DNA of 64,000 nucleotides, taken from NCBI RefSeq assembly GCF_054482525.1, contig NZ_CM137006.1; one strand, 5' to 3'. Position 1 is the stretch's first letter. Each line of letters begins with the position of its first letter. The notes under the pieces are model-generated. The model ran no database searches. It saw nothing but the letters and a program-made list of their open reading frames with translations, and was not told the DNA's origin. Both the position numbers and the translations under genes were made by a program. Below are positions 7,832 through 53,339 of the stretch, piece after piece.

Positions 7832-8295
7832 CAGGACGCTCCTTGTTGAAACAGGGTGGTAAGTTCTTCCGCGGTCGGCTGGAAGGTGTTAATGCGGCCC
7901 GTTGCTTCGCCGTCGTTGATACTGCACTCAAAACTGCCGAAGCGATCGTCTTGCATCAGGAGTTTGACGGTAATGGTCAGCGTCTGGCCTGCGGGCAGAA
8001 TGCCAGCGGCGCAAAGCAATTCACGTGCGCCCAGTACCATCCCTAACTCAATACTGTTTTTGCCCTGCTGGTGGCGATGCCAGCCAGACCAGACGCCGAC
8101 GGTTTGCGCCATCAATTCAAGGGCAAACCAGCCAGGGAGATTGCCGTCCGGGTCGAGAAACGGTGCCAGTACGCCACTGGGCGAAACCGTCACGCGGCAC
8201 ACCGCGCTGTCATCGCTGACGCTCACCACGTCTTCCAGCAGTAACATGGGCGCGTCGTGGGGCAGATAAGCGCCGGGGGATAAATAGTGGCTCAC
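7831..8295 (-). CDS. Hotdog-fold dehydratase (DH); apeP-like
   Basis: 154 aa ORF, tightly coupled between the KR and KS genes; size and position fit a FabA/FabZ-like hotdog dehydratase. Confidence 0.7.
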   Translation of the reverse strand: MSHYLSPGAYLPHDAPMLLLEDVVSVSDDSAVCRVTVSPSGVLAPFLDPDGNLPGWFALELMAQTVGVWSGWHRHQQGKNSIELGMVLGARELLCAAGILPAGQTLTITVKLLMQDDRFGSFECSINDGEATGRINTFQPTAEELTTLFQQGAS

Positions 8296-9470: not shown

Positions 9471-10047
9471 CTAAGTATTGAATGGTGATGTGGTATTTAA
9501 AGACATGCTGCTCAATGCTGATTGGCACGCGTTTGCCCTTGCGATTCAAATAGGTGATTTCCGTGACCAGCTTGCCGCTGGCGTTACGCAGCTCGCGTTT
9601 GTCACCGTTGTCGCGAAGTGTCCAGCCAGTGGGAAGTTGCGGCTGCCAGGCGCTAATCGGCCAGTGGCTGAGCATCACGTCAGCCAGTACCTGACTTGCG
9701 GGCGGTAACTGTGGGACGACGATCGATTGCTCGGCGCGTAGCCCTTGCGCATCGTAGGTCACCAGAAACAGGCGAATGCCGACCGACGACAGTCCGGCAA
9801 GGGTGATTTTCTGGTCGTCGGCGTTAAGCATCACTAGCAGCGACTGGGTTTTGCCGTTGAAGCTGCCGGTCAACAGTTGCTGGGAATTGACGGCGGGTGA
9901 AATCCCCGGCGCAGGCAGCGTGATGCGCGTGCCAGGTTGCAGCCACGCTTGCGGGCGGCCTTCCTGTTCTGGTTGCGAGTGGCTACAGCCGGTGAGGATA
10001 AGCGTAGCGGTCAGGGCGAACGCTCGCCAGAATGTGGGTTTGATCAT
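9463..10047 (-). CDS. Lipoprotein of unknown function, DUF3261-like; apeN-like
   Basis: 194 aa ORF with signal peptide and lipobox LTGC; overlaps neighbouring genes at both ends. Confidence 0.7.
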   Translation of the reverse strand: MIKPTFWRAFALTATLILTGCSHSQPEQEGRPQAWLQPGTRITLPAPGISPAVNSQQLLTGSFNGKTQSLLVMLNADDQKITLAGLSSVGIRLFLVTYDAQGLRAEQSIVVPQLPPASQVLADVMLSHWPISAWQPQLPTGWTLRDNGDKRELRNASGKLVTEITYLNRKGKRVPISIEQHVFKYHITIQYLGD

Positions 10048-12362
10048 TTTTTTGTTCTCTTTTTATCGGGCATGGCCAGCGGCGAAAGCAGGAAGGCGGT
10101 GAAAATACCGCTCACCAGCACAATGCCAAAACTGCTGATGGCCTGGGTGGCGCTGAATACCAGCATTCCCAGCGTCAGCAAGGTGGTGAGCATTGCCAGC
10201 GTGATCGCCAGTAGCGAAGTTAATGGTGTGCCGCGCGGATTACTGAAAAACAGCGTGTAGTTGATGCCGATGCCAAGCACCAGTACCAGCGCCAGCAGCG
10301 AAAAGAGATTCACCGCCTGCCCGCTCATCGCCAGCACCGCCAGACCGCAGCCCAGTGAAAGCACCGAAGGCACCAGGCTGATAAACCCTTTGCGCCAGCC
10401 GAGGCGGGCCACTGCGCCGCAGGCAATTACTGCCAGCGCCACCAGCAACAAGCCGGTTAACACATAACGGTAAAGTGCGAACAATTCATCAAAGGTGTTT
10501 TTGCGATCAACCCAGGCAATGCCACAAGGGTAATAGCTGGAGATTTCCTGTAGCGCCGCGCTATTTTTAACCCCTTCAACCGGCACCAGCACGCCGCTTG
10601 CGCCATTTTCCAGCGTCAGCCACAGCAGACGCCAGCCTTCACTGGCGGGGCTTGCCAGCCATTCATCAACCTTCACTGGCATGGCGTTAAGATCCGGGTT
10701 CACCGCCGTCAGCCCGGCATTTTGCAGTGCTTTTGTTACCGTCGGGGCAGCCGTTTTCAGCAGGTCTAAATCTTCCTCCTGCCGCGCCAGGGAGTTCAGC
10801 GGAATGGTGCGGTAGTTGCTGATAAGGCCGTCTTTTTTCGCTTTCTCCAGCGAGGTGGTAAATGTCTCCAGCCGTCCCAAGGTTTGCTGTGACGAATCGC
10901 CGTAAACCACAAACCATTTTTGATCGACGCTTTGTCCGGTCAGGGCGGTGATGGCTTTCTCCTGCGCCAGAATATGCTGCGGTAGCGCCTGTAACTGCGA
11001 GATATCGTCATCGACGCACAGCATTGACATCCCCGCCAGCGAAAACAGCGCCAGCGCGACGGGCAGACCCCGCGACAGTTTTTTATTACGCCGCCACGCT
11101 GCCAGCCAGCGCAGCATCAGCGCCATCGCTGGAACCGGACGCACCGGCAGGCCACGGCACAGCCACGGATGCCAGAACAGGACGGTCAGACAGGAGGCGC
11201 TCAACCCGACGGCGGCAAAAATCGCCATCTGGCGAATGCCGGGGAAGGGGGCGAGCATCATAATCAGATACGCCGCCACGGTGGTGAGCAGCGCCAGCAG
11301 CAGGGCATTGCGCACTTTCGCCAGGCTTTGCCACGGCGAAACGTCATTGCCGTGCACCATCCGCTCGGTGAGGTAATAGAGCGTGTAGTCAGCGGAAATG
11401 CCGATAACGCTCATGCTCATCACCAGCGTCATCAGGTGTAATTCGCCGAAAATCAACAAGGTGGCGACCGTTCCCGCCAGCGCGCCGATGCCGATGGAAA
11501 TCACACACATCAGCAACGGGCGCAAAGAGCGGAACACCGCCACAATCAGCAATATCACCCCCAGCAGCGTTGCCACGCCCAGGGTGGAGATATCCTGCTT
11601 CGCCTGTTGGCTGGCGTAATCGCTGTAAAACACCGTGCCGCGTGAGAGCAACTGAGCCTGCGGGTAACGCGTTTTCAGATCCTTTTCCAGCGTATTCAGG
11701 GTCGTGATGAGCTGGTGGGTTTGCTGCATATCAAACGACGATCCCGCCAGTTCGCCGTGCAGCAGATACCAGTAGTTGCCCTGGGGATCCTGCGTCACCA
11801 GCCAGCCGTCCATCAGCCGCAAACGCTGGCCGTTTTTCGCCATCGCCAGCTGCGAGCCACGCATTAACATCAGCGGATCGTTTTGCAGCTCCTTACCGCT
11901 TACCCCGGAGAACGCAGAATAAAGCTGGGAGAGGATCCACTGCGCCTGCGCTTCGCCGCCGTTTTGCAGGCGCGCGCGGGTGTCGGGGTCAATCAGACCG
12001 TTGCGATGCTGCCAGAAAAACGCTCCCCACGCCTGCTGGCTGGCGGCATCCATTGGCCCTTTAACGTCGCCGAGCGCAGCGGATTTTTGCAGCAGCGTCA
12101 GCCACTCCTGAGCGACCCTGGGATTAGCCTCTTTACCGGGGCTGACCAGCCACACCAGTTGGCGGTCCAGACGCTGCATAAAGCCGTCATTCAGCGCTGG
12201 GGGAATATCGCCCATCGCCTGTTTGGGTAACATAGCCAGTACGCTACTGTTCAGTCGTGATTGCGGCAACAGGATCAGCAACGCCGCCGCCATGACCAGG
12301 CAGACGATCCCCCATAACAGCGCCGGGCGTTTACTGGGCGGCAAAACGTTGGCGTTCGTCAT
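10044..12362 (-). CDS. MMPL/RND-superfamily membrane exporter; apeM-like
   Basis: 772 aa ORF with two blocks of transmembrane helices separated by soluble domains, typical of MMPL lipid exporters. Confidence 0.8.
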   Translation of the reverse strand: MTNANVLPPSKRPALLWGIVCLVMAAALLILLPQSRLNSSVLAMLPKQAMGDIPPALNDGFMQRLDRQLVWLVSPGKEANPRVAQEWLTLLQKSAALGDVKGPMDAASQQAWGAFFWQHRNGLIDPDTRARLQNGGEAQAQWILSQLYSAFSGVSGKELQNDPLMLMRGSQLAMAKNGQRLRLMDGWLVTQDPQGNYWYLLHGELAGSSFDMQQTHQLITTLNTLEKDLKTRYPQAQLLSRGTVFYSDYASQQAKQDISTLGVATLLGVILLIVAVFRSLRPLLMCVISIGIGALAGTVATLLIFGELHLMTLVMSMSVIGISADYTLYYLTERMVHGNDVSPWQSLAKVRNALLLALLTTVAAYLIMMLAPFPGIRQMAIFAAVGLSASCLTVLFWHPWLCRGLPVRPVPAMALMLRWLAAWRRNKKLSRGLPVALALFSLAGMSMLCVDDDISQLQALPQHILAQEKAITALTGQSVDQKWFVVYGDSSQQTLGRLETFTTSLEKAKKDGLISNYRTIPLNSLARQEEDLDLLKTAAPTVTKALQNAGLTAVNPDLNAMPVKVDEWLASPASEGWRLLWLTLENGASGVLVPVEGVKNSAALQEISSYYPCGIAWVDRKNTFDELFALYRYVLTGLLLVALAVIACGAVARLGWRKGFISLVPSVLSLGCGLAVLAMSGQAVNLFSLLALVLVLGIGINYTLFFSNPRGTPLTSLLAITLAMLTTLLTLGMLVFSATQAISSFGIVLVSGIFTAFLLSPLAMPDKKRTKK

Positions 12363-12936
12363 CGGTCAGTTGCGCTGGCGTCAGTTGATGTTGGGTAAGA
12401 GCGATATCGGTGCGATCGCCCTGTTTATCATTAAGCTGAATGCTCTCCAGATAGGTTTGCCCGGCGAGATCGATGGTGTTGAAAATTTTATCCAGCGGCG
12501 TGGTGGTCGGCGTCAGGCGCAGTGTCCAGCGGCCTTCGCCTTTGTCAGCAAATTCGACGCGGAAGTTTTGTTCCAGCACTTTGCGATCGGCCTGGAACAG
12601 CGCGCGCAGCAGGTGGTTAAACTGGAACATCTGCGGGTTATTTTCTGCCGTGATAATTTGCGGCGGCTGACCGTTGATCACCTGCACCATGCGTTTATCG
12701 TCCAGCAATAGTTGCATGGGGAACGGTGAGGTTTGATCCCACAACAGCCCCTGGTCGCGGGCGATCAACATCTGGCCCTGAGATCGTAGCGGCTGCGGCA
12801 GATCTTTAATCGTCCGGGTTTGATCGAAATGGGCGCGGATCACTGGCTGTTCGGTAAAGCGTTGCTGAAGATCGTCCAGGTTCAGGGCGCTCACAAACGG
12901 GCTAATCAGCAGCGCCAGCAGCGGTAAAAATTTCAT
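12331..12936 (-). CDS. LolA-like outer-membrane lipoprotein carrier protein; apeL-like
   Basis: 201 aa ORF with signal peptide (MKFLPLLALLISPFVSA); size and composition fit the LolA/LolB fold. Confidence 0.7.
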   Translation of the reverse strand: MKFLPLLALLISPFVSALNLDDLQQRFTEQPVIRAHFDQTRTIKDLPQPLRSQGQMLIARDQGLLWDQTSPFPMQLLLDDKRMVQVINGQPPQIITAENNPQMFQFNHLLRALFQADRKVLEQNFRVEFADKGEGRWTLRLTPTTTPLDKIFNTIDLAGQTYLESIQLNDKQGDRTDIALTQHQLTPAQLTDDERQRFAAQ

Positions 12937-13355
12937 GGTTTGACTCCCATGCGTTCAAACAGAATATCGGGGCTGACAAAGCACAGTTCGCGGCTTTGCT
13001 CGTCGACCGCGACCTGAATGGTGTATCCGGTGGTGGCGCGTTTTCCCGTTTCGGCATCGAAAATCTGATAGCCAATCCGCAGACGGTTTTCGAACTCTTC
13101 GATATGCGCACGCACGCGGATGCGTTGCTCAAAGGTGAGGGCGTGGCGATATTTCACCCTCGCATCGACCACTGGCCACAAATAACCGGACTCTTTCATC
13201 TGCCGATAGCCGTAATTGAACTGGTTGAGCAGCGCCTCGCGGGCCACTTCAAAGTAGCGAAAATAGTTACCGTGCCAGGCCACGCCCATCATATCGACGT
13301 CGTGAAAGGGAATGGTCAGCTCGACTTCAGCGGTAAATCGGGGATCGTTAAGCAC
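12933..13355 (-). CDS. Acyl-CoA/acyl-ACP thioesterase, 4HBT/YbgC hotdog family; apeK-like
   Basis: 140 aa ORF with the N-terminal ...ELTIPFHDVDMMGVAWHGNYFRYFE... motif typical of 4HBT-type thioesterases. Confidence 0.75.
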   Translation of the reverse strand: MLNDPRFTAEVELTIPFHDVDMMGVAWHGNYFRYFEVAREALLNQFNYGYRQMKESGYLWPVVDARVKYRHALTFEQRIRVRAHIEEFENRLRIGYQIFDAETGKRATTGYTIQVAVDEQSRELCFVSPDILFERMGVKP

Positions 13356-13358
13356 CCT

Positions 13359-15035
13359 TTACTCCTTGTCCTGGACTTCCGGCAGTTGCCAGAAATCGAA
13401 AAAATTAAACCAGTCGAGGGGGGACTGGAGCGCGTAATATTCCAGACGCGCGGCGTAATGATCGATAGCGTTTTGCAGCGCCTGCTGGCGTTCGCCACGC
13501 GGCAACAGCAGCGGGTCGGCAAAGGTTTCGCAGTGAATATGCAGCTTGCCGTGCTGGCGCAGCGCGAAAATCAGATTCACCGGGCAGCGCAAAATAGACG
13601 CAAGAATAAACGGCCCCTGCGGGAAGGGCGCAGGCTGGCCCATAAACGGACTCCAGCAGACTCGCCAGTCGCCGCCGCGTTGCGGGTTGACGGCGATGCG
13701 GTCACCGACAATCGCCACCCATTCGCCGTTATCCAGCTTCTCTTTGAGCAGGATGGCGGTTTCTGGGCCGATATCCGTCACCGGGAGCAGGTTGATGCCT
13801 GCCTGCGGGGCCATCTCCTGCATTATCTGTTTAAAGCGTTGGGCGTTTTCGCTAAACACCAGCGCGTTAATGGTTTTGTAGCCCTGAATTTTTGCCAGCG
13901 CCCGGCACACTTCCACATCGCCAAGATGCGAGGCCAGCAGCAATTTGCCGCGCGGATCGCTGACGTTAAGTGCCGCTTCTGCGCCTGGTGCAAACAGCAC
14001 ATCACGCCCGAGTTGCAGCTCGCCGCGCCAGCTGGCGATTTTGTCGAGCATGGCGTTGCCGAAACGTAGAAAGTGCTGATAGCTGTTGATTTTTGCTGCC
14101 AGTGGTTGTTGTTGGCGCACACGGGCGAGCCAGGCTTGCGACGCTTTACGCGCACGAGCAGCGGTGAGCCAGTAGACGCCCACCACCGGGTAAAGCAGCG
14201 CGGTAAACGCAGTTCTTCCCAGCAGACGCCAGACCAGCAGCATCAGGCGCATTCCCCATAATCCTTTCACTTCGCTCTGCCGCGCCCAGTGGCTGGAAGA
14301 GCTGCGCATCAGCAGTGAAGGAATACGCGGCAACATGCCGAAAAACAGACGTGTGTGCATGAGCGAGATGCGGACGTTATCTTTCAGGGCATCAAAATGC
14401 GAAAGCCCGTCCAGTGGATAGGTGACGCGGGTCGGCACGAAATAGCTGGTGTTTCCCTGCCAGTAGAGGCGCACCATCACTTCAGTGTCGAAATCCATCC
14501 GCTTGCCGATGGTGGCGTATTTTGCCAGTTGCAGCGTTGGCGCAACCGGATAAACGCGAAAGCCGCACATGCTGTCTTTCAGTTGCAGGGAGAGCGTTTC
14601 GATCCATACCCAGACGTGGGTGACCCAGCGCCCGTACAGCCGTGAGCGGGGGATGGAGTCATCGTAAATCGGCTGGCCGGAGATCAGCGCCGCAGGCTGC
14701 TGTTCAGCGAGTGCCAGCAGTTTAGGGATGTCTTCAATCGCGTGCTGACCGTCAGCATCCACCTGTACCGCATGGCTGAAGCCCGCGTCTGCCGCCGCCT
14801 GTAAGCCGCGCATTACCGCCGCGCCTTTGCCTGCGTTTTCTGCCAGGCGAATTAAGGTCACGCCAGGCTGTTCGGCAACCAGATTATCCAGTTGCTGTTG
14901 CGTGGCGGCATCGCTGCCGTCATCCACCACAATACAGGGCAGATTAAATGGCTTAAGACGCGCCAGCACGCCCGGCATCATCGCACCGTGGTTGTAGCAG
15001 GGGATCAACACACAGGGAGAAAAGTTTACCGACAT
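13359..15035 (-). CDS. Two-domain protein: family 2 glycosyltransferase (N-terminal) fused to a lipid-A-type acyltransferase domain (C-terminal); apeJ-like
   Basis: 558 aa ORF; N-terminus CVLIPCYNHG...VVDDGSDA...VDADGQH is the GT2 signature (DxD-type); C-terminal half resembles LpxL/HtrB-like acyltransferases. Confidence 0.7.
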   Translation of the reverse strand: MSVNFSPCVLIPCYNHGAMMPGVLARLKPFNLPCIVVDDGSDAATQQQLDNLVAEQPGVTLIRLAENAGKGAAVMRGLQAAADAGFSHAVQVDADGQHAIEDIPKLLALAEQQPAALISGQPIYDDSIPRSRLYGRWVTHVWVWIETLSLQLKDSMCGFRVYPVAPTLQLAKYATIGKRMDFDTEVMVRLYWQGNTSYFVPTRVTYPLDGLSHFDALKDNVRISLMHTRLFFGMLPRIPSLLMRSSSSHWARQSEVKGLWGMRLMLLVWRLLGRTAFTALLYPVVGVYWLTAARARKASQAWLARVRQQQPLAAKINSYQHFLRFGNAMLDKIASWRGELQLGRDVLFAPGAEAALNVSDPRGKLLLASHLGDVEVCRALAKIQGYKTINALVFSENAQRFKQIMQEMAPQAGINLLPVTDIGPETAILLKEKLDNGEWVAIVGDRIAVNPQRGGDWRVCWSPFMGQPAPFPQGPFILASILRCPVNLIFALRQHGKLHIHCETFADPLLLPRGERQQALQNAIDHYAARLEYYALQSPLDWFNFFDFWQLPEVQDKE

Positions 15036-15409
15036 AGGCGGATCTTCCCGCTACTGGCGGTGTGGCGGGCGTCACCGTCGTGACGCTGATAGCTAAAGCT
15101 CAGAATCTGGCGTTCTTCCTGCCAGTTAAGCGTGAGCGTGACGCGGTTTTCCGGCAGCAACGGGGACTGGAATTTGATGTTCTGAATAGAGTGAAAACGC
15201 CAGCCAGGCGCGAGCAGGGCAAGCGCGTAGCTCATCGCCCAGTCGATTTGTGCAACTCCTGGAAGTAACGGCTGCACGGCAAAATGACCGCGAAACCAGA
15301 ACAGATCCGCCCTGAGATGCAGAACAATTTCAAGGTGATTCGCTTGTGCCTGATGGCGCTCGATTTCATGGGGCTTCATGAAATAACTCCTGTAATTGCG
15401 CATAGACAC
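15026..15409 (-). CDS. Hotdog-fold dehydratase, FabA/FabZ-like (DH); apeI-like
   Basis: 127 aa ORF (true start possibly the internal Met at about 15379); small hotdog protein overlapping both neighbours. Confidence 0.6.
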   Translation of the reverse strand: MSMRNYRSYFMKPHEIERHQAQANHLEIVLHLRADLFWFRGHFAVQPLLPGVAQIDWAMSYALALLAPGWRFHSIQNIKFQSPLLPENRVTLTLNWQEERQILSFSYQRHDGDARHTASSGKIRLCR

Positions 15410-16766
15410 GCTTGTTCATACTGTTTACTGGCATTTCATCAATAACGCGCCAGTAACGCGGAATAGCAACTGGCTCCAGGGTCGGGCGCAGTAATCGCCG
15501 CCAGGTCATTTCCTGGCTATGCCCGCCGCCGTTCTGCCATTGCAGATGAGCTTCGTCATCCAGCACCAGCAAAACGCCGATGCTCTGACGCCCGCCGCGC
15601 GTAACGGGAACTGCCGCCGCCTCGCGAATGCCGTCCAGCGCCAGCAGACGTTGTTCTACTTCCTGGAGTGAAATACGTTTTTCTTCAATCTTAACGATGC
15701 GCCCACGACGCCCCATCAGATGGAACTGACCGTCCTGGCTAAACTGCAAGAGATCGTCGAGCAACAGGCCGTTATCTTCCGCTATCAGCGGTGAAAAGAG
15801 GCGAAATGCTTCACCTTCGACCTGGAAGTGCATACCTGGAAAGGGCCGCCAGCGGCGTTGCTCTTGTTCGCGGTAACGCCAGGCAATGACGCCGGTTTCC
15901 GTGCTGCCGAAGATTTCATCAGGCCAGACGCGCAGCCAGCTCTCGGTATATTGTACGTCCTGCCACGGCAGCTCACCGCCAGCAGAGAGAAGCACCTGAA
16001 CAGGCGGCGGGGATAGCTGAGCATCCAGACGCTTCAAAAATGCCGGGCTGCTGATGAAGATATAGCGATGCTGGTGACTCAATGCGGCAAACTGTTCGAC
16101 ATACCAGAGCATGGCGGCGTGCAGCGGTAATCCCAGCGCCATTGGCAGGAAAACGCGAAAAGTCAGGCCGTACAAATGCTGCGGCAAAACGGAACCGACG
16201 ACACGACATCCGGCAAGACGTGCGCCTAATCGTTCAGCCAGCAGTTCTGCTTCACGGTCCAGCAAATGAACAGGCTTAATTACCCGCTTTGGCTGCCCCG
16301 TAGAACCGGAGGTAAACAGCTCGATATAAGCGTCTGGCGCTATAGCGGCAAAGGTGAATGATTGTGTCGCGACTTGTGGGGAACTTGCTACCAACAGCAA
16401 TGAACCTTGCCAGTTAAGTTCGCTGTCGCTAAGTACACCATCGAACAGTTCACGTTGCTCATTAAGCTGGATGACACGGTTATGCCCCGGAAGCACCGGC
16501 GTTTTTCCGGCGTGTAGCGTGGCGAGCAGGGCAACGATAAATAGATAGCTGTTCTCAAAGCACAGCGCCCAGCGTTCACCCGGCTGTTGCTGCAAGCGGC
16601 AGATAAGTTGCGCGACATCGTGACGCAAATCGCCCAGTGTCCACGAGCTTTCGTCCAGCCACGCAATGGGCGTGTCATCAGGGCGTGGCGCAGTCAGCCA
16701 GCGTGCAAGCGGTAAGGTCTGCTTCATGAGCGATCTCTTTTTATCACCTGACGGCGCACCAGCCAT
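15366..16766 (-). CDS. AMP-dependent ligase (acyl-ACP/CoA synthetase-like adenylating enzyme); apeH-like
   Basis: 466 aa ORF with AMP-binding core motif TSGSTGQPKRV; the start may be the internal Met (MKQTLPL...) at about 16727. Confidence 0.8.
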   Translation of the reverse strand: MAGAPSGDKKRSLMKQTLPLARWLTAPRPDDTPIAWLDESSWTLGDLRHDVAQLICRLQQQPGERWALCFENSYLFIVALLATLHAGKTPVLPGHNRVIQLNEQRELFDGVLSDSELNWQGSLLLVASSPQVATQSFTFAAIAPDAYIELFTSGSTGQPKRVIKPVHLLDREAELLAERLGARLAGCRVVGSVLPQHLYGLTFRVFLPMALGLPLHAAMLWYVEQFAALSHQHRYIFISSPAFLKRLDAQLSPPPVQVLLSAGGELPWQDVQYTESWLRVWPDEIFGSTETGVIAWRYREQEQRRWRPFPGMHFQVEGEAFRLFSPLIAEDNGLLLDDLLQFSQDGQFHLMGRRGRIVKIEEKRISLQEVEQRLLALDGIREAAAVPVTRGGRQSIGVLLVLDDEAHLQWQNGGGHSQEMTWRRLLRPTLEPVAIPRYWRVIDEMPVNSMNKRVYAQLQELFHEAP

Positions 16767-17305
16767 TCACCTGCCATTAACGTTCCCATCAACAAATAAG
16801 CAATCATGCCGTTCCAGGCGGTCCATAACGACATATCGCCATAAAGCGCGGTAAAGAGGGCAATTCCGCCGTTAATGATGAAAAAGCCGCACCAGATTTG
16901 CGTGACACGGCGGGTATAGCGCACGCCCTTTTCCGGGAGGTCTGGCTCCTGCAAACGTGCCAGCCGCTCAACTATCGGCATTGTCGACCACAGCGAACCG
17001 CCAAAAACCGCCAGCATGATCGCGTTAACCACTACCGGGTAAAACAGCAGTAGCTGGTGCGTTTTCAACAGAAAGCTGGCGACACACAATGCGATGCCCA
17101 CGACAGCGACGATTTGTGTGACGGCTTGTAGCGGCCCCGCCCGGCGACGGGTCTGGCGCAGGCGCAACAAAAGCAGCAACGCTATTAGCGGCAACAACCA
17201 GTGCAGGCCGTTATGCGCCAGGCCAAACCAAATCACAAACGGCCAGGCGAGCAGCAATAATCCAGTCAGCAGCTTAATCATCGGTAGCGAGCGAATGCCC
17301 GACAT
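16724..17305 (-). CDS. Small integral membrane protein of unknown function; apeG-like
   Basis: 193 aa ORF with several hydrophobic helices; coding-dense position inside the cluster. Confidence 0.6.
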   Translation of the reverse strand: MSGIRSLPMIKLLTGLLLLAWPFVIWFGLAHNGLHWLLPLIALLLLLRLRQTRRRAGPLQAVTQIVAVVGIALCVASFLLKTHQLLLFYPVVVNAIMLAVFGGSLWSTMPIVERLARLQEPDLPEKGVRYTRRVTQIWCGFFIINGGIALFTALYGDMSLWTAWNGMIAYLLMGTLMAGEWLVRRQVIKRDRS

Positions 17306-17309
17306 CAGA

Positions 17310-17561
17310 TCAGGCTTCTTGTAGCAGGCGTTCTACAGCCTCTACGACATCCTGAACTGTGCGCACTGCTTTAAACTCTTCCGGCTTGATTTTCTTACCG
17401 GTTTTCTTTTGCAGGTGCACAATCATGTCAACGGCGTCGATGCTGTCCAGTTCCAGATCTTCGTACAGGCGCGCTTCAGGTTTGATGTCCTGCGGATCGA
17501 TTTCAAACAGCTTAACCAGCAGGGCTGAGACTTCCTGATAGACGGTTTGTTGTTCTGTCAT
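17310..17561 (-). CDS. Acyl carrier protein; apeF-like
   Basis: 83 aa acidic ORF with the phosphopantetheine attachment motif LELDSIDAVDMI. Confidence 0.85.
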   Translation of the reverse strand: MTEQQTVYQEVSALLVKLFEIDPQDIKPEARLYEDLELDSIDAVDMIVHLQKKTGKKIKPEEFKAVRTVQDVVEAVERLLQEA

Positions 17562-17572
17562 GATGGCTTTCC

Positions 17573-17830
17573 TCAGGCACGTTGCGCAGCAATGAAAGAG
17601 GCCAGAGTGGCGACGGAGAAAAAGTGCTGACGCATCTCTTCACTTTCCGCAGAAAGTACAACGCCATATTGATTTTTCACTGCCAGCCCCAGTTCCAGGG
17701 CATCGATGGAATCCAGTCCTAAACCGTCGCCGAACAGCGGCGCATCGGTCTCGATATCATCAGGAGTCAACTCGTCCAGATTGAGGGTACTGATGATGAG
17801 GTTTTTAATTTCCAGATAAAGCGCTTGCAT
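17573..17830 (-). CDS. Acyl carrier protein; apeE-like
   Basis: 85 aa ORF with LGLDSIDALELG attachment motif; tandem with the second ACP gene. Confidence 0.85.
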   Translation of the reverse strand: MQALYLEIKNLIISTLNLDELTPDDIETDAPLFGDGLGLDSIDALELGLAVKNQYGVVLSAESEEMRQHFFSVATLASFIAAQRA

Positions 17831-18644
17831 TATTTATTCCTGAGAGAGGTAAACAACCTTGTTGTAATTGAAGCAAAAGATGCCGGTTTAACTGCCTTGC
17901 TGCCAGCGCCGGTTCTTGTGAAGTTGCATCGTAAAATTTATTGATTTCAACCCGACCATGGACTTCAACCGTAAAAAACGGCCGGTCAGGTGGAACGTCA
18001 TACCATTTACTTTGTTTATCCAGCAGATGCTCGCTACAGCCGATCGTCACGATGCGTAAATCGCTGGCACAGCGCACGGCAATATTCGCCGCCCCGCGCT
18101 GCAGCGTCATTTTTTCACCGGGCTTCGTTCGCGTGCCTTCGGGGAAAATCAGGATAGTGTCACCCTGTGCCAGTCGCTGTTGGCAGCGGGGTAACAGGGT
18201 TTCAGCTTCGCTGTTGATTAAATAATCTGCCGCCCGCACGACGCCGCCAAGAAAAGGATTTTTTAACAGCGCGCTTTTCACCAGGCAGTCAGTTTCTGGC
18301 ATGACTGACGCCAGCAGCACGTAATCGATCAGCGTGGGATGATTGGCTACGACGAGGCAACCGCGTTCCTGACGTAAAATTTCAGCGCCATCAATACGAT
18401 AATCCAGCACGCCAAGCCCTTTCGCGACAGTTAAAAACAGGCGAAAACTGGCGGCAATGCTGCGACGCGCCAAACGACGGCGGCGGGAAGTATCCCACAC
18501 CAAAACTAACAATATGTTAAACCACACGACAGAAAGCAGCAGGCCGCCGAGACCAAACAGGGCAAAACATAACCCGGTCATGACCAGTCGCCAGGTCCAC
18601 TCCAGACGTGACATCAGCTTACTCATCTGCGGCTCCAGCGCCAT
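17805..18644 (-). CDS. Lysophospholipid (PlsC-type) acyltransferase; apeD-like
   Basis: 279 aa ORF with N-terminal transmembrane segment and H(X)4D-type motif NHPTLID; likely start at the Met giving an ATGA overlap with the upstream stop near 18626. Confidence 0.75.
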   Translation of the reverse strand: MALEPQMSKLMSRLEWTWRLVMTGLCFALFGLGGLLLSVVWFNILLVLVWDTSRRRRLARRSIAASFRLFLTVAKGLGVLDYRIDGAEILRQERGCLVVANHPTLIDYVLLASVMPETDCLVKSALLKNPFLGGVVRAADYLINSEAETLLPRCQQRLAQGDTILIFPEGTRTKPGEKMTLQRGAANIAVRCASDLRIVTIGCSEHLLDKQSKWYDVPPDRPFFTVEVHGRVEINKFYDATSQEPALAARQLNRHLLLQLQQGCLPLSGINNASALSGN

Positions 18645-19345
18645 TGCACGCGCTCGCCAGGCAGTGAAAATGCGTCTGCATTTTGTAAATAGTGCTGTAA
18701 AAACAACATGCTTTGCGGCAGTGATGTTTCATTGCCCGCAATGGCTGACTGCGTTTCACATTGCCAGTCATCGCCAGCTTCAATCACCAGCGCGACGGCG
18801 TACGGCCAGGTCGGCATTTCTGATGGCAGTTGTGGGTGATAAAACTCAGGCAGAAAGCCATCAAAATCGACCATCAGCACGCGCTGGTATCCCGCTTGTA
18901 ACAGGCTAAGCACTTCACACAAACCTTGCTGGAAAGTGTCGCGACCAGCAGAAAGCGATGACGAAACGATCGGCTGTTTGGCCGCAATGGTCAGGTTACC
19001 CACGGAAGAGTTGTGTACGGAGAGCGCGAAGTCGGTCGGAGAAAGCGCCTGTTCAGTTGCCAGTGCATGAACAATGCGGTAATTGCGCTCCAGTTCGCCA
19101 TGACGACTGGTATACAAAACGGCGTCTGGCTGATGGCGGCGTAGCATTGCCAGACCGCATTCAACAGCCAGTTTGCTGCCTGAACTAAGGCGGCGGGCGG
19201 TCATCATTGGCAGTTCACTTAATTTTGCCAACGGCGCGGCAGGGTCAATCGCCCACGGCTGGCGCGACCATGCTTGCCATTGCTGCGCTTCGCTAAGTCC
19301 AGGCGCCAGTGCCTGCCAGTCGGTAATATTTAATGTAAATTTCAT
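18623..19345 (-). CDS. Beta-ketoacyl synthase N-terminal-domain protein lacking the catalytic Cys (chain-length-factor-like); apeC-like
   Basis: ORF track gives 18623..19369 (248 aa); probable start MKFTLNITDW at about 19345. About half the size of a full KS with no active-site Cys motif recognisable. Confidence 0.6.
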   Translation of the reverse strand: MKFTLNITDWQALAPGLSEAQQWQAWSRQPWAIDPAAPLAKLSELPMMTARRLSSGSKLAVECGLAMLRRHQPDAVLYTSRHGELERNYRIVHALATEQALSPTDFALSVHNSSVGNLTIAAKQPIVSSSLSAGRDTFQQGLCEVLSLLQAGYQRVLMVDFDGFLPEFYHPQLPSEMPTWPYAVALVIEAGDDWQCETQSAIAGNETSLPQSMLFLQHYLQNADAFSLPGERVQWRWSRR

Positions 19346-19385
19346 CAACGCGCGCCCGCGGTAAACCAAAATTATTAAGTGACGA

Positions 19386-20453
19386 TTATTTCTTTTGGCA
19401 TATCAAAAGTGTATGCCCAACGCCTAAATTATCGTGGCGCTCTGCTACCTGGAATCCTGCTTTATTCAGATAGTCGTAAAATTTCTCTGCACTATAGAAA
19501 CGGCTGTTACCGTTTGCCATGCAGGTAAAATAAAGTGAGGACGCGTTCAGGCTAAATGATGCTGCTTCAAACCGCTGCGCATCCCAGAACAACTCCATGA
19601 TGCAAACTTTTGCGCCAGGCTTCATTACGCTGGCGATTTTGCTGAGTATGCTAATTATTTGTTCGGGTGAAAAACAGTCTAAAAATTGGCTCATCCACCA
19701 GATATCAGCCTCGCCCGGTAATGGGGCATCGCTTAGCATATCCACCGCATGGAAATCTATGCGATCAGAAAAACCTGCATTCGCGATATTTTCTTTCGCT
19801 AGTACGATTTGTTGTGGCAGATCTAATAACGTCACGGCGATGTTTTCATTGTATTTGCAGCAACGCAAAGCCCACTTACCCGTATTGCCGCCTACATCGT
19901 ACAATGTTGTGGGGTTGTTGGCGAATACATAAGGCAGTGCGGCGTTAAATGCGCCATCTGAATAGTAATGATCAAACGCAAACCAGCTTTCACGAGCGGC
20001 GTCTGGTAATTGTGAAAGTGCCGGATATATCGTCGGCCAGTCGCCAAATACTTTTAACCCGGACGGTTTTCCTTCATTGAGTGAATCGGCGAGGAAGAAG
20101 AGCCCCTGGTAACAGACATCCTGGGTGAAATCCATATTCACGCGAGTCATAGTGTCATGCAGGAGGTAATGACCGATTTTCGCCAGGTAATACATTCCCT
20201 CTTTACAGGTAATAATTCGCCCGCTTAAGCCCATATCTAACAGAACGCTGGCCGCATATTCGTTGATATGGCTATGTTCGGTGATATCAGCCAGCGTTGC
20301 GCCATGTTTGCCTTGCCGATCCAGATATGAAAGTACACCCGCATTACGTAGGCAGAGTGCTGTTTGAAAAAGCATAGGGGCAAAGGCAATGCGTTGAGCT
20401 TCGGTAATCGCATCCAGTGCGCTAAGAGAATCCTGTTCGTACATGTTGGGCAC
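19386..20453 (-). CDS. SAM-dependent methyltransferase (O-methyltransferase family); apeB-like
   Basis: 355 aa ORF with glycine-rich SAM-binding motif LYDVGGNTGKWAL and C-terminal catalytic region. Confidence 0.8.
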   Translation of the reverse strand: MPNMYEQDSLSALDAITEAQRIAFAPMLFQTALCLRNAGVLSYLDRQGKHGATLADITEHSHINEYAASVLLDMGLSGRIITCKEGMYYLAKIGHYLLHDTMTRVNMDFTQDVCYQGLFFLADSLNEGKPSGLKVFGDWPTIYPALSQLPDAARESWFAFDHYYSDGAFNAALPYVFANNPTTLYDVGGNTGKWALRCCKYNENIAVTLLDLPQQIVLAKENIANAGFSDRIDFHAVDMLSDAPLPGEADIWWMSQFLDCFSPEQIISILSKIASVMKPGAKVCIMELFWDAQRFEAASFSLNASSLYFTCMANGNSRFYSAEKFYDYLNKAGFQVAERHDNLGVGHTLLICQKK

Positions 20454-20512
20454 AACCTGTTAAGAGGGAATTAAATTATTATCGGACCGCAGCGGCCCGA
20501 CTTTAGGAAGAA

Positions 20513-20902
20513 TTATAAATCTGCGCCCGCTGACAAATTCAGTTGAATATCTTTGTCGAGATTGCGGACCCAGCGATTGTAGTTTTTATGAATTTGTCCG
20601 CCTGACGCTTGTAGGTTCTGGCTATTTTCATAATTGATATCGTAGCTGGATGCCGTGTAGTTAATGCGAATTTCGGCTGAATGATCGCGTGACTGTTGAC
20701 GTGCTTTAATTACGCCTTGTCCGGCTTCGGACATAATCCATTTGCGTTCAACGCCAGCTTTCAGAATCGCTTTTTTCACTTGTTCCTGGGTATGACCAGC
20801 GCTGACGGTTGAGTGAACCTGATCAATTGGCGCAGTACGCGCGCAACCCGCTAAAGCACCCACAACAGCAATAGCCGCAAACCATTTCATGTAATGTCTC
20901 AT
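20513..20902 (-). CDS. Small lipoprotein of unknown function; first gene of the cluster
   Basis: 129 aa ORF with signal peptide and lipobox LAGC; its start codon lies inside the IS1 target duplication. True start may be the second Met (MKWFAA...). Confidence 0.6.
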   Translation of the reverse strand: MRHYMKWFAAIAVVGALAGCARTAPIDQVHSTVSAGHTQEQVKKAILKAGVERKWIMSEAGQGVIKARQQSRDHSAEIRINYTASSYDINYENSQNLQASGGQIHKNYNRWVRNLDKDIQLNLSAGADL

Positions 20903-20904
20903 TA
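20896..20904. repeat. IS1 target-site duplication, left copy (gtctcatta)
   Basis: 9 bp direct repeat identical to 21673-21681, directly flanking the IS1 ends. Confidence 0.85.
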
Positions 20905-20919
20905 GGTAATGACTCCAAC

Positions 20920-21423
20920 TTATTGATAGTGTTTTATGTTCAGATAATGCCCGATGACTTTGTCATGCAGCTCCACCGATTTTGAAAACGACAGCGACTT
21001 CCGTCCCAGCCGTGCCAGGTGCTGCCTCAGATTCAGGTTATGCCGCTCAATTCGCTGCGTATATCGCTTGCTGATTACGTGCAGCTTTCCCTTCAGGCGG
21101 GATTCATACAGCGGCCAGCCATCCGTCATCCATATCACCACGTCAAAGGGTGACAGCAGGCTCATAAGACGCCCCAGCGTCGCCATAGTGCGTTCACCGA
21201 ATACGTGCGCAACAACCGTCTTCCGGAGCCTGTCATACGCGTAAAACAGCCAGCGCTGGCGCGATTTAGCCCCGACGTATCCCCACTGTTCGTCCATTTC
21301 CGCGCAGACGATGACGTCACTGCCCGGCTGTATGCGCGAGGTTACCGACTGCGGCCTGAGTTTTTTAAGTGACGTAAAATCGTGTTGAGGCCAACGCCCA
21401 TAATGCGGGCGGTTGCCCGGCAT
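20920..21423 (-). CDS. insB: IS1 transposase InsB
   Basis: 167 aa ORF matching IS1 InsB (…[54 protein letters not shown]…). Confidence 0.9.
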
Positions 21424-21617
21424 CCAACGCCATTCATGGCCATATCAATGATTTTCTGGTGCGTACCGGGTTGAGAAGCGGTGTAAGTGAACTGCAGTTG
21501 CCATGTTTTACGGCAGTGAGAGCAGAGATAGCGCTGATGTCCGGCGGTGCTTTTGCCGTTACGCACCACTCCGTCAGTAGCTGAACAGGAGGGACAGCTG
21601 ATAGAAACAGAAGCCAC
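21342..21617 (-). CDS. insA: IS1 protein InsA
   Basis: 91 aa [46 protein letters not shown]... matching IS1 InsA. Confidence 0.9.
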
Positions 21618-21672
21618 TGGAGCACCTCAAAAACACCATCATACACTAAATCAGTAAGTTGGCAGCATCACC

Positions 21673-21681
21673 GTCTCATTA
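21673..21681. repeat. IS1 target-site duplication, right copy (gtctcatta)
   Basis: Identical to 20896-20904. Confidence 0.85.
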
Positions 21682-42413: not shown

Positions 42414-43318
<905 letters not shown>

Positions 43319-43960
43319 TTTTCCAGGAGATGCTCCTGCATGGCTTTCAGATATGCATTTTCTGCGCGAAGATAACGCAGCTCATTCTTCATCTCTTCCG
43401 GCGTCATGTTTGCCTCGTTTTCATGGGTATCATCAGAACGGGTCATGCTTTTCTCCTTCCTGCGCCTGATAAAGGCCTCATTACCAGATTTGCGGTAGCC
43501 TTTTATCCAGTTTTTAACCGTGTTGTGGCTGGGAATGTTAAACCGGGCAGCTACCCGGGGTAGAGACTCAGAATGCCCGAGAGCATAAAGAACCACGCAA
43601 AGTTTATCTTCAGGAGAATAGCTACGCTTGTGTCTGCAATCCAGTGCCCGAGGACCGTGAAGAAGAAAAAGATTAATCCAGTGTGAGAGGCTGGTGTGAG
43701 AAAGTTGAAAGAGTTTTGCCGTAGAAATGATGCCTGCATGACCAGCCAGGTAGTGATTTACAGCGGCAAGTTTTACTTCAAATGAATGTTTCATAAACTG
43801 CACCTTCAGATGTCAGATTATGTCCAACATTTGGGGTGCAGTTCATACGCCGCATCCGGCATGAAACGATGAGCAATCTGTAGAGTTTGATTCAGACCTT
43901 CTATTTTTCCCGCTTATCCGTGCCCCATCTCCCATTTTCCCTCACACGTACCGTCACCGC

Positions 43961-49677: not shown

Positions 49678-51420
49678 ATGATAAAACCGACGTTTTTACG
49701 CCGGGTGGCCATTGCTGCTCTGCTCTCAGGAAGTTGTTTTAGCGCCGCCGCCGCGCCTCCTCCGCCACCTGTTTCTTATGGCGTGGAGGAAGATGTCTTC
49801 CATCCGGTACGCGCGAAACAGGGGATGGTGGCGTCTGTAGATGCTACTGCCACTCAGGTGGGGGTGGATATCCTCAAGGAGGGCGGGAATGCCGTTGATG
49901 CCGCCGTGGCTGTGGGCTACGCGCTGGCGGTAACGCATCCGCAGGCAGGGAATCTGGGCGGTGGTGGTTTTATGCTGATCCGCTCGAAAAATGGCAATAC
50001 CACCGCTATCGATTTCCGCGAAATGGCACCCGCCAAAGCGACCCGCGATATGTTCCTCGATGACCAGGGCAACCCGGACAGCAAAAAATCACTCACTTCG
50101 CATCTGGCCTCCGGTACGCCAGGTACGGTCGCAGGTTTCTCGCAGGCGCTGGAGAAGTACGGCACCATGCCGTTAAATAAAGTGGTGCAGCCGGCGTTTA
50201 AACTGGCACGCGATGGTTTTATCGTTAATGACGCGCTGGCTGACGATCTCAAAACCTACGGTAGCGAAGTGTTGCCGAATCACGAAAACAGCAAGGCTAT
50301 CTTCTGGAAAGAGGGCGCGCCGCTGAAAAAGGGCGACAAGCTGGTGCAGGCGAACCTGGCAAAGAGCCTGGAGATGATTGCCGAAAACGGCCCGGACGAA
50401 TTCTACAAAGGCACAATAGCGGAGCAGATCGCTCAGGAGATGCAGAAAAACGGTGGCTTGATCACTAAAGAAGATTTAGCGGCGTATAAAGCGGTCGAAC
50501 GTACACCGATTAGCGGCGAATATCGCGGGTATCAGGTTTACTCGATGCCACCGCCATCTTCCGGTGGGATTCATATCGTGCAGATCCTCAATATCCTGGA
50601 AAACTTCGATATGCAGAAATACGGCTTTGGCAGCGCCGATGCGATGCAAATCATGGCAGAAGCGGAGAAATACGCCTACGCCGACCGCTCGGAATATCTT
50701 GGCGATCCGGATTTTGTGAAAGTCCCGTGGCAGGCGCTGACCAATAAAGCCTATGCCAAATCTATTGCCGATCAAATCGATATCAATAAAGCGAAGCCAT
50801 CCAGCGAAATTCGCCCCGGCAAGCTTGCGCCTTATGAGAGTAATCAAACTACCCATTACTCAGTGGTGGATAAAGACGGCAACGCGGTAGCGGTGACCTA
50901 TACGCTGAACACCACCTTCGGTACGGGCATTGTCGCGGGTGATAGCGGTATTCTGCTTAATAACCAAATGGATGATTTCTCCGCCAAACCTGGCGTACCG
51001 AACGTTTACGGGCTGGTGGGCGGTGACGCCAACGCGGTCGGGCCGAATAAACGCCCGCTGTCGTCGATGTCCCCAACCATTGTGGTGAAAGACGGTAAAA
51101 CCTGGCTGGTTACCGGTAGCCCTGGCGGGAGCCGGATTATCACCACCGTGCTGCAAATGGTAGTGAATAGTATCGATTATGGCATGAACGTCGCCGAAGC
51201 GACCAATGCGCCGCGTTTCCACCATCAGTGGTTGCCGGACGAGCTGCGTGTCGAAAAAGGGTTTAGCCCGGATACGATCAAGCTGCTGGAAGCAAAAGGT
51301 CAGAAAGTGGCGCTGAAAGAGGCGATGGGCAGTACACAAAGCATTATGGTTGGGCCTGACGGTGAGCTGTACGGTGCATCTGACCCGCGCTCGGTAGATG
51401 ATTTAACGGCGGGGTATTAA
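49678..51420 (+). CDS. ggt: Gamma-glutamyltranspeptidase
   Basis: ORF track 49651..51420; likely start MIKPTFLRRVAIAALLSGSCFSAAAA at 49678 (580 aa); catalytic Thr region present (...NQTTHYSVVDKDGNAVAVTYTLNTTFGTG...). Confidence 0.9.
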   Translation: MIKPTFLRRVAIAALLSGSCFSAAAAPPPPPVSYGVEEDVFHPVRAKQGMVASVDATATQVGVDILKEGGNAVDAAVAVGYALAVTHPQAGNLGGGGFMLIRSKNGNTTAIDFREMAPAKATRDMFLDDQGNPDSKKSLTSHLASGTPGTVAGFSQALEKYGTMPLNKVVQPAFKLARDGFIVNDALADDLKTYGSEVLPNHENSKAIFWKEGAPLKKGDKLVQANLAKSLEMIAENGPDEFYKGTIAEQIAQEMQKNGGLITKEDLAAYKAVERTPISGEYRGYQVYSMPPPSSGGIHIVQILNILENFDMQKYGFGSADAMQIMAEAEKYAYADRSEYLGDPDFVKVPWQALTNKAYAKSIADQIDINKAKPSSEIRPGKLAPYESNQTTHYSVVDKDGNAVAVTYTLNTTFGTGIVAGDSGILLNNQMDDFSAKPGVPNVYGLVGGDANAVGPNKRPLSSMSPTIVVKDGKTWLVTGSPGGSRIITTVLQMVVNSIDYGMNVAEATNAPRFHHQWLPDELRVEKGFSPDTIKLLEAKGQKVALKEAMGSTQSIMVGPDGELYGASDPRSVDDLTAGY

Positions 51421-51424
51421 TATC

Positions 51425-51455
51425 TTAAGCCCTCTCCCGATAGGCGAGGGCTTAA
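51425..51455. terminator. Putative bidirectional terminator hairpin between convergent ggt and yhhY
   Basis: ttaagccctctcc-cgatag-gcgagggcttaa inverted repeat in the 60 bp gap. Confidence 0.5.
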
Positions 51456-51480
51456 ATGACAAACTTAGATTGCAAATTCT

Positions 51481-51969
51481 CTATTTCACCCGCGCCATAT
51501 AATACGCATCGACATATTCACCATTACGTAATGCGTACTTCTTGCCAGTCCCTTCAATCTCAAATCCAAATTTTTTATAGACCTTAATTGCTGGCGCGTT
51601 ATCGACGAACACCGTTAGCTCAATACGATCTACCCGCAACCAGTTGTCGCACATTTCAATCATCTCTCGCATCAGGGCGCTGGCGACGCCGCGATTCTTC
51701 CAACGGGAGTCGACACAAATACCAAAATCGGCAACATGACTGCGGCGTGGGCGCTGTTGCACGTCAATGGTGAGGTGACCCACGACGGTTCCATCAATAC
51801 AGGCAACTAACTGTTTGATGCCGGGACGATCGGCGAGTCGCTCCTGCCACATATGATCGGAAGGATGAGGCACCTGTAGTGTGTTGCAATACACCTCCGG
51901 CTGGGCGTGAATCTGCCTGATGGCCTCGTAATCGCGCGTTTCAGCATGGCGTATCACTATCTCACTCAT
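51481..51969 (-). CDS. yhhY: GNAT-family N-acetyltransferase YhhY
   Basis: ORF track 51481..52047; likely start MSEIVIRHAETRDYEAIRQ at 51969 (162 aa); acetyl-CoA binding motif RWKNRGVASAL. Confidence 0.8.
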   Translation of the reverse strand: MSEIVIRHAETRDYEAIRQIHAQPEVYCNTLQVPHPSDHMWQERLADRPGIKQLVACIDGTVVGHLTIDVQQRPRRSHVADFGICVDSRWKNRGVASALMREMIEMCDNWLRVDRIELTVFVDNAPAIKVYKKFGFEIEGTGKKYALRNGEYVDAYYMARVK

Positions 51970-52065
51970 TCCTTTGTCCTCTTTGGGGTAAATGTCCCTT
52001 TCAACATCATTGACTTTCCAATGCGAGTCAAATGCATTTTTTTGCAAAAAGTGTTGGACAAGTGC

Positions 52066-52088
52066 GAATGAGAATGATTATTATTGTC
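52066..52088 (+). promoter_or_regulatory. Fur-box-like operator in the ryhB promoter
   Basis: AT-rich tgagaatgattattattgtc immediately upstream of the ryhB +1 resembles the Fur consensus (GATAATGATAATCATTATC). Confidence 0.55.
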
Positions 52089-52090
52089 TC

Positions 52091-52180
52091 GCGATCAGGA
52101 AGACCCTCGCGGAGAACCTGAAAGCACGACATTGCTCACATTGCTTCCAGTATTACTTAGCCAGCCGGGTGCTGGCTTTT
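52091..52180 (+). ncRNA. ryhB: Iron-responsive small regulatory RNA RyhB
   Basis: The 90 nt sequence gcgatcaggaagaccctcgcggagaacctgaaagcacgacattgctcacattgcttccagtattacttagccagccgggtgctggctttt matches RyhB as I remember it, ending in a terminator hairpin (gccagccgggtgctggc) plus U-run; lies between yhhY and yhhX. Confidence 0.9.
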
Positions 52181-52301
52181 TTTTGATCTTTCGTTTTCAA
52201 TTTATCCACGGGAAGTGCTTGTGTTCGTTATGCGCACTCCAGTAGGAACCACGTCCGCTTTGCGCTAAGGTGTAAATAATCACCTTAAAAAGGACGAAAT
52301 C

Positions 52302-53339
52302 ATGGTCATCAACTGCGCCTTTATTGGCTTCGGCAAAAGCACCACCCGTTACCATCTGCCGTATGTACTTAACCGCAAGGATAGCTGGCATGTCGCGCAT
52401 ATTTTTCGCCGCCATGCGAAGCCGGAAGAACAGGCCCCCATTTACTCTCATATCCATTTCACCAGCGATCTCGACGAAGTACTAAACGATCCCGATGTTA
52501 AGCTGGTTGTGGTCTGCACCCATGCAGACAGCCACTTCGAGTACGCGAAGCGCGCGCTGGAAGCCGGGAAAAATGTGCTGGTCGAAAAACCGTTCACCCC
52601 GACGCTTGCGCAGGCGAAAGAGCTGTTTGCTCTGGCGAAAAGTAAAGGGCTGACCGTCACGCCATATCAGAATCGTCGCTTTGATTCCTGCTTCCTGACG
52701 GCGAAAAAAGCGATTGAAAGCGGCAAGCTGGGAGAGATTGTCGAAGTGGAAAGCCATTTTGACTATTACCGCCCGGTGGCAGAAACCAAACCTGGGCTGC
52801 CGCAGGATGGCGCGTTCTATGGCCTTGGTGTGCATACGATGGACCAGATTATTTCTCTGTTCGGTCGCCCGGATCACGTCGCTTATGACATCCGCAGCCT
52901 GCGTAATAAAGCCAATCCTGACGACACCTTTGAAGCGCAGCTGTTTTATGGCGACCTGAAAGCCATCGTCAAAACCAGCCATCTGGTGAAAATCGATTAT
53001 CCGAAATTTATCGTTCACGGTAAGAAAGGTTCGTTTATTAAATACGGTATCGACCAGCAGGAAACCAGCCTCAAGGCTAATATTATGCCGGGCGAACCGG
53101 GATTCGCGGCGGATGATTCGGTCGGTGTGCTGGAGTATGTCAATGACGAGGGCGTGACGGTCAGAGAAGAGATAAAGCCGGAGATGGGCGATTACGGGCG
53201 CGTTTATGATGCGTTGTATCAAACCATCACTAACGGTGCGCCAAATTACGTCAAGGAATCTGAAGTTCTTACCAATCTGGAAATCCTTGAACGAGGATTT
53301 GAGCAAGCCTCTCCCTCCACAGTGACTCTCGCGAAGTAA
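52302..53339 (+). CDS. yhhX: Gfo/Idh/MocA-family NAD(P)-dependent oxidoreductase YhhX
   Basis: 345 aa ORF with N-terminal Rossmann motif CAFIGFGKSTTRYHLPYV. Confidence 0.85.
   Translation: MVINCAFIGFGKSTTRYHLPYVLNRKDSWHVAHIFRRHAKPEEQAPIYSHIHFTSDLDEVLNDPDVKLVVVCTHADSHFEYAKRALEAGKNVLVEKPFTPTLAQAKELFALAKSKGLTVTPYQNRRFDSCFLTAKKAIESGKLGEIVEVESHFDYYRPVAETKPGLPQDGAFYGLGVHTMDQIISLFGRPDHVAYDIRSLRNKANPDDTFEAQLFYGDLKAIVKTSHLVKIDYPKFIVHGKKGSFIKYGIDQQETSLKANIMPGEPGFAADDSVGVLEYVNDEGVTVREEIKPEMGDYGRVYDALYQTITNGAPNYVKESEVLTNLEILERGFEQASPSTVTLAK

Follow-up and report, generated by a model that had tools for sequence, protein, structure and literature searches.

The 64,000-nucleotide stretch of DNA analysed here, which we call the window, is from E. 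coli and is colinear with strain PCN033 at 99.99% identity, save for one IS1 insertion far from the locus considered below. A gap of 332 nt separates the divergent reading frames of yhhY (51481-51969, minus strand; an N-acetyltransferase of 162 aa) and yhhX (52302-53339, plus strand; an oxidoreductase of 345 aa). In this gap, at 52091-52184 on the plus strand, sits ryhB, the gene for the small RNA RyhB, with yhhY as its divergent neighbour and yhhX downstream on its own strand. Both the list of open reading frames and the annotation of PCN033 and K-12 support this location, which a preliminary description made from the letters of the sequence had proposed. The curated record of K-12 MG1655 likewise places ryhB (b4451) between yhhX and yhhY, and the same setting has been reported in the literature (PMC2189734, PMC3415461). 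The preliminary description had assigned the gene a span of 90 nt, from 52091 to 52180. When the whole T tail is counted, as in the K-12 annotation, the end is 52184, not 52180, and the length becomes 94 nt.

Several lines of evidence identify the gene. A search of the full 64 kb, both strands, against Rfam 15 with cmscan gave RF00057, the RyhB family, as the sole match above the gathering score. The match occupies 52120-52184 on the plus strand, covers the full model (positions 1-67) and scores 83.1 bits against a gathering score of 55 (E 3.6e-14). An Infernal/Rfam search without a RyhB match at 52091-52180 had been named beforehand as the result that would overturn the assignment; the match was there. 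It begins at 52120, 29 nt inside the gene, because the Rfam model spans only the conserved 3' two-thirds (67 positions) of the E. coli RNA. Scanned permissively with Rfam, the interval 51400-52400 showed no RNA family besides RyhB on either strand. The 5' part, which lies outside the model, is covered by alignment with K-12: 52091-52184 equals MG1655 ryhB (NC_000913.3 3580922-3581016, minus strand) but for eight T in place of nine, and the identity extends over promoter and gene together (52052-52184, comprising the -35, the Fur box, the -10 and the RNA) with that single T of the tail as the only difference. The two loci also share the terminator hairpin and the orientation relative to yhhY and yhhX. 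All the sequence-level criteria that were tested place the window copy in the RyhB family, and it represents the canonical, syntenic ryhB and not a second paralogue. The family score and the near-identity to b4451 thus bear out the 90-nt RyhB of the preliminary description, and the curated K-12 gene confirms its remark that this sRNA is a known one; there is nothing unusual in the window copy. RyhB is among the best-characterised bacterial sRNAs and is switched on at low iron.

The locus is nearly universal in the species. A segment of 361 nt around it has matches in 5424 of 5426 complete E. coli genomes, at 100% identity in PCN033 and nine others. The 131 nt of promoter and gene (52060-52190) are likewise found in 5424 of the 5426, with 4355 at 99% identity or above. 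This shorter segment matches 5429 places in the 5424 genomes, a few of which carry two or three ryhB copies. Two complete E. coli genomes have no match to it, and the match in NZ_CP195448.1 reaches only 92% identity and extends over about 10 nt more. Neither PCN033 nor any of the other 23 E. coli genomes listed has a ryhB feature in its RefSeq automatic annotation; of the genomes looked at, the curated K-12 record alone has one. Since ryhB is unannotated in these 24 genomes though present in 5424 of 5426, the earlier remark that such a non-coding gene is invisible to gene calling is fair. The companion statement that ryhB is absent from the track of open reading frames holds for any sensible gene track, but not for the raw list, in which reading frames of 64 aa and 53 aa overlap the gene. 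The locus exposes a gap in RefSeq automatic annotation. It adds no new biology; its value is that of a positive control for reading raw sequence, which in this case gave exact coordinates for a non-coding gene of 90 nt, for its terminator and for the site that regulates it.

What controls the gene? The promoter scan found a sigma-70 promoter on the plus strand with 10 of 12 matches, composed of a -35 hexamer TGGACA (52055-52060), a spacer of 18 nt and a -10 hexamer TATTAT (52079-52084). It is the sole promoter-like site in 51900-52350, where shuffled sequences gave a mean of 0.4. The first base of the K-12-annotated RNA, G52091, lies 7 nt past the last base of the -10 hexamer, and the -35 hexamer is aligned with TTTACA or TAGACA at orthologous loci of other genera. 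Just upstream of the -35 there is an A/T-rich block, TTTTTTTGCAAAAA (52036-52049), which is a candidate UP-like element of the promoter. Fur boxes were scored across the whole window as matches to the 19-mer consensus GATAATGATAATCATTATC and, in addition, with the 7-1-7 motif. The best 19-mer match in the window, at 52070-52088 (16/19 on the minus strand, 15/19 on the plus strand), overlaps the -10 hexamer of ryhB and is in turn overlapped by a 14/19 match at 52064-52082; the top three scores of the window all fall in this cluster. So do the two best 7-1-7 matches, at 52069-52083 and 52075-52089. Together the overlapping predicted sites occupy 52064-52089 and cover the spacer and the -10 of the promoter. 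Sites with at most three mismatches number one in the window against 0.03 expected from shuffles, which substantiates the Fur-box-like sequence that had been noticed upstream of the gene. The other Fur-like matches in the window (25178/25184 and 23782) reach 14/19, which is chance level; mapping of coordinates to PCN033 places the pair 25178/25184 at the 3' end of yhhQ. The centre of the site at 52069-52083 is at -15 relative to ryhB, and Chen et al. 2007 described a gel-shift-confirmed Fur cluster of 25.2 bits at the -15 position, first attributed to yhhX (PMC2189734). Judged by its letters, the ryhB site of the window is a Fur box, and this allele is identical to the K-12 site bound in those gel shifts (PMC2189734).

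At the other end of the gene, the terminator scan located a Rho-independent terminator at 52159-52184 on the plus strand, as the preliminary description had anticipated. It is formed by a stem of 7 bp (five G-C pairs) with a 5-nt loop (AGCCAGC-CGGGT-GCTGGCT, 52159-52177) followed by a run of eight T (52177-52184). T-runs of eight or nine occur in 26 of 28 syntenic orthologues. Within E. coli, a sample of 12 spread matches consists mostly of the 132-nt form with the K-12-like T9, so the T8 of the window is probably a minority allele in the species. The Hfq-binding module of such sRNAs has been defined as the hairpin, a long T tail, typically of more than seven T, and a preceding U-rich stretch (PMC4509938); the eight T at 52177-52184 fall within this range. 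By analogy with that module, the A/U-rich stretch at 52149-52158, which is unpaired in both the minimum free energy and the consensus structures, is a putative part of the Hfq module here.

The remainder of the RNA is folded less conspicuously. Its minimum free energy of -24.1 kcal/mol corresponds to z = -0.59 against shuffles and indicates no unusual stability; folding energy alone would therefore have missed ryhB. The consensus fold computed with RNAalifold retains a small core hairpin and the terminator only. Across 22 distinct orthologues these stems are invariant or vary on one side; neither RNAalifold nor the counting of pairs yielded useful covariation, because the core and the terminator do not vary. 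Of 500 shuffles, 28 attained the covariation score of the orthologues. The 5' domain, outside the Rfam model, gives a different picture when it is folded alone. In the window it forms a stem-loop at 52095-52121, closed by UCAGG/CCUGA, and in 26 of the 28 syntenic orthologues a closing stem is likewise made from the two ends of the domain. This stem reads UUCAGG/CCUGAA (52095-52099 with 52117-52121 here), with the variants UUCUG/CAGAA and, in Pantoea, UCCCGG/CCGGGA. Formal counting on the unadjusted alignment lends this stem little support: 84% of its cells are paired and one pair has two-sided changes in three sequences. The MAFFT alignment mis-registers the variable stem in Pantoea-like sequences, and folding each sequence separately, a comparison that carries no statistical test, is more informative.

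Between the 5' domain and the putative Hfq module lies the conserved single-stranded core (52127-52148, plus strand), the target-pairing region of the RNA, in which CATTGCT occurs twice (at 52130 and 52139). Between RyhB and K-12 sodB (from -60 to +30), perfect complementarity extends over at most 9 nt and joins GACATTGCT (52128-52136) with AGCAATGTC across the start codon. Shuffled sequences equalled this length in 7 of 300 cases, which makes it modestly unlikely on its own, and it is the same 9-nt RyhB-sodB duplex that was determined experimentally (PMC1807950). The complement was obtained by a search for exact matches, used in place of RNAduplex. The latter, given full-length RyhB and sodB from -60 to +30, ignores intramolecular structure and returned a meaningless zipper of 69 nt, which 29 of 500 shuffles matched or bettered.

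The core is also the part of the gene that can be followed furthest. On contigs representing one genome per species, the exact 22-nt core CGACATTGCTCACATTGCTTCC was found at at least 120 loci in Enterobacterales (from Escherichia to Yersinia, Proteus and Photorhabdus), Vibrionaceae and Aeromonadaceae (Aeromonas), 116 of which were usable for upstream analysis. A Fur box of at least 14/19 lies within 85 nt upstream in 87% of these 116 listed loci, compared with 0.3% of 2320 control windows drawn from the same RyhB-core loci; those listed without one are mostly from Vibrio, in which the RNA is much longer at its 5' side (PMC1807950). Copies in other Gammaproteobacteria (Salmonella, Klebsiella, Yersinia, Vibrio) have in common with the window the exact core, the upstream Fur box and an intrinsic terminator. 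The RNA of Vibrio cholerae, at about 225 nt, possesses a much longer 5' region than the RNA of about 90 nt encoded here, and the Vibrio and E. coli RNAs cross-regulate each other's sodB (PMC1807950). The second copies known from Salmonella, Klebsiella and Yersinia (ryhB-2, PMC3415461) occupy non-syntenic loci, unlike the syntenic copy of the window. Many Enterobacterales genomes contain two exact-core loci, only one of which is beside yhhY (for example the locus pairs L004/L005, L007/L008 and L012/L013). In Salinivibrio sharmensis two core copies, separated by 306 nt, share one contig, and a Fur-box match accompanies each of them.

The alignment of the 28 syntenic orthologues separates fixed from changeable parts of the locus. 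The block from about 52067 to 52085 (most of the Fur box together with the -10), the core and the terminator stem are invariant, whereas the 5' 30-45 nt of RyhB and the terminator loop are variable and bear indels. This pattern decides against the idea that the region encodes a small protein instead of a non-coding RNA. The one point in favour of that idea is the presence, in the mechanical six-frame list, of two reading frames that overlap ryhB, at 51992-52186 (64 aa) and 52084-52245 (53 aa). Conservation follows a promoter and an RNA, not a protein: no reading frame survives from genus to genus across the indel-rich 5' part of the RNA, and both listed frames run through promoter and terminator. 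Nor is a coding sequence annotated at ryhB in the genomes examined (PCN033, K-12 and the listed E. coli). Invariant regulatory parts next to a 5' part rich in indels are the mark of a regulated RNA gene rather than of a coding frame, which disposes of the 64-aa and 53-aa frames. We regard the small-protein reading as having practically no chance of being right; the conservation pattern and the absence of a coding annotation effectively refute it.

Based on these observations, we interpret the stretch as the chromosomal ryhB of an E. coli near-identical to PCN033, working as a Fur-repressed, Hfq-bound, iron-sparing small RNA, and we hold this to be very nearly certain; nothing of weight speaks against it. 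The identity of the gene, the anatomy of promoter, Fur box and terminator, the conservation and the complementarity to sodB are our own observations; the binding of Fur and Hfq, the iron-dependent expression and the decay of targets are taken from the literature. For K-12, published work shows that RyhB accumulates under iron limitation or in a fur mutant, that it depends on Hfq and that it lowers sodB and sdh mRNA. How would such a locus operate? Because the Fur cluster spans the spacer and the -10 of the promoter, we infer that Fe(II)-Fur seated on the boxes at 52064-52089 would shut out RNA polymerase as long as iron is sufficient. When iron becomes scarce, Fur would leave the DNA, and transcription would start at G52091 and end at the terminator at 52159-52184, yielding an RNA of about 90 nt. 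Hfq would bind the terminator hairpin with its U tail and the A/U-rich stretch that precedes it. The core at 52127-52148 would then pair with mRNAs that encode non-essential, iron-using proteins, among them sodB and sdhCDAB, at their ribosome-binding regions. Pairing would block translation and trigger decay by RNase E, and in this manner iron would be spared.

Does the promoter serve the small RNA alone? The preliminary description spoke of a divergent promoter region. This is right as far as the divergent yhhY is concerned, but the ryhB promoter has been suggested to feed yhhX as well, by read-through (PMC8896160, PMC4509938). In its strong form this suggestion makes the stretch mainly a Fur-controlled promoter and the 5' leader of a ryhB-yhhX transcript, with read-through of the terminator turning yhhX into an iron-starvation gene. 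The layout of the locus is favourable to it: yhhX begins 118 nt past the ryhB terminator on the same strand, and the promoter scan finds no other consensus promoter between the two. About 20% read-through of the ryhB terminator has been measured on a plasmid (PMC4509938), the yhhX transcript rises on iron depletion and loses this rise when ryhB and its promoter are deleted (PMC8896160), and the original isolate of the locus was a Fur-titrating 'yhhX' fragment (PMC2189734). A further point is that yhhX follows the core in 15 listed loci, every one of them in the Escherichia-Citrobacter-Enterobacter-Klebsiella portion of the sample. Against this stand the statement that co-transcription of ryhB and yhhX 'has not been shown experimentally' and the finding that termination at ryhB is enhanced under the very stress that induces it (both PMC4509938). 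Moreover, yhhX is downstream of the core in none of the listed loci of Pantoea, Mixta, Serratia and Yersinia, where ryhB stays beside yhhY. On balance we consider a primary role as leader of yhhX unlikely, although it is the most plausible of the alternatives. A dual operon of small RNA and mRNA, resembling sgrS-setA, would in any case add to the role of the sRNA and not replace it. SgrS-setA is indeed a close parallel, as there, too, an Hfq-dependent sRNA with a long T-tract terminator is followed by a protein gene on the same strand, and read-through has been measured for both; co-transcription is only suggested in the case of ryhB-yhhX (PMC4509938). An elaboration of the same scheme, in which ryhB and yhhX form a Fur-controlled operon, the level of YhhX is set by read-through and the choice between T8 and T9 tunes the split between Hfq-competent RyhB and yhhX mRNA, we rate as improbable. 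The parallel has a further limit, given that SgrS encodes the protein SgrT and RyhB is without coding function.

The opposite neighbour raises a similar issue. If the Fur cluster were shared and also repressed the divergent yhhY, an acetyltransferase that detoxifies aminoacyl nucleotides would be tied to iron starvation. The arrangement itself could be read in this way, since yhhY is divergent from the RyhB core, at near-constant spacing, in 27 listed loci from Escherichia to Yersinia, Serratia, Pantoea and Mixta, and only 121 nt lie between the ATG of yhhY and the +1 of ryhB. The details of the sequence speak otherwise. On the yhhY strand a single -35-like element is conserved, TTGAC(T), which is complementary to 52026-52031; it is about 33 nt off the nearest edge of the Fur box, and Fur would therefore not occlude it. 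The promoter scan detects no consensus promoter on the minus strand of 51900-52350, and in a full-text literature search on yhhY with Fur and iron no title or abstract suggested control of yhhY by Fur. A Fur box shared with yhhY is thus unlikely, and Fur repression that ties yhhY to iron starvation we deem very improbable. Across 15 genera the GTCAA at 52026-52031 (TTGAC when read on the strand of yhhY) does not vary, and TTGAC(T) is a candidate for the -35 hexamer of yhhY.

A few features elsewhere in the window deserve mention. On the far side of yhhY, just 60 nt (51421-51480) separate the ggt stop from the yhhY stop, where K-12 has about 3.4 kb comprising yhhZ, yrhA interrupted by IS1E, yrhD and yrhB; the strain of the window therefore does without this K-12 segment, which is outside the sRNA locus. 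Mapping of the PCN033 annotation reveals, at about 42446-43794, an IS1397 transposase of the IS3 family with a programmed frameshift, between ugpB and livF. It also places a gene cluster of the fatty-acid/polyketide type, about 15 kb in size, between yhhT and acpT (about 5874-20890, minus strand). The cluster codes for ketosynthases, a chain-length factor, two carrier proteins, FabZ- and FabG-like enzymes, an AMP-binding protein, a glycosyltransferase, and MMPL and LolA-like proteins. It may resemble an aryl-polyene-type cluster, and presumably K-12 is without it at the yhhT-acpT position. The only structural difference between the window and PCN033 is found at its edge: a 768-bp IS1 at 20905-21672 on the minus strand, 99.2% identical to K-12 IS1E and flanked at 20896-20904 and 21673-21681 by the 9-bp target duplication GTCTCATTA. 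The first reading frame of the cluster has its start codon (about 20890, minus strand) a few bases downstream of the element, which may therefore separate this gene from its promoter.
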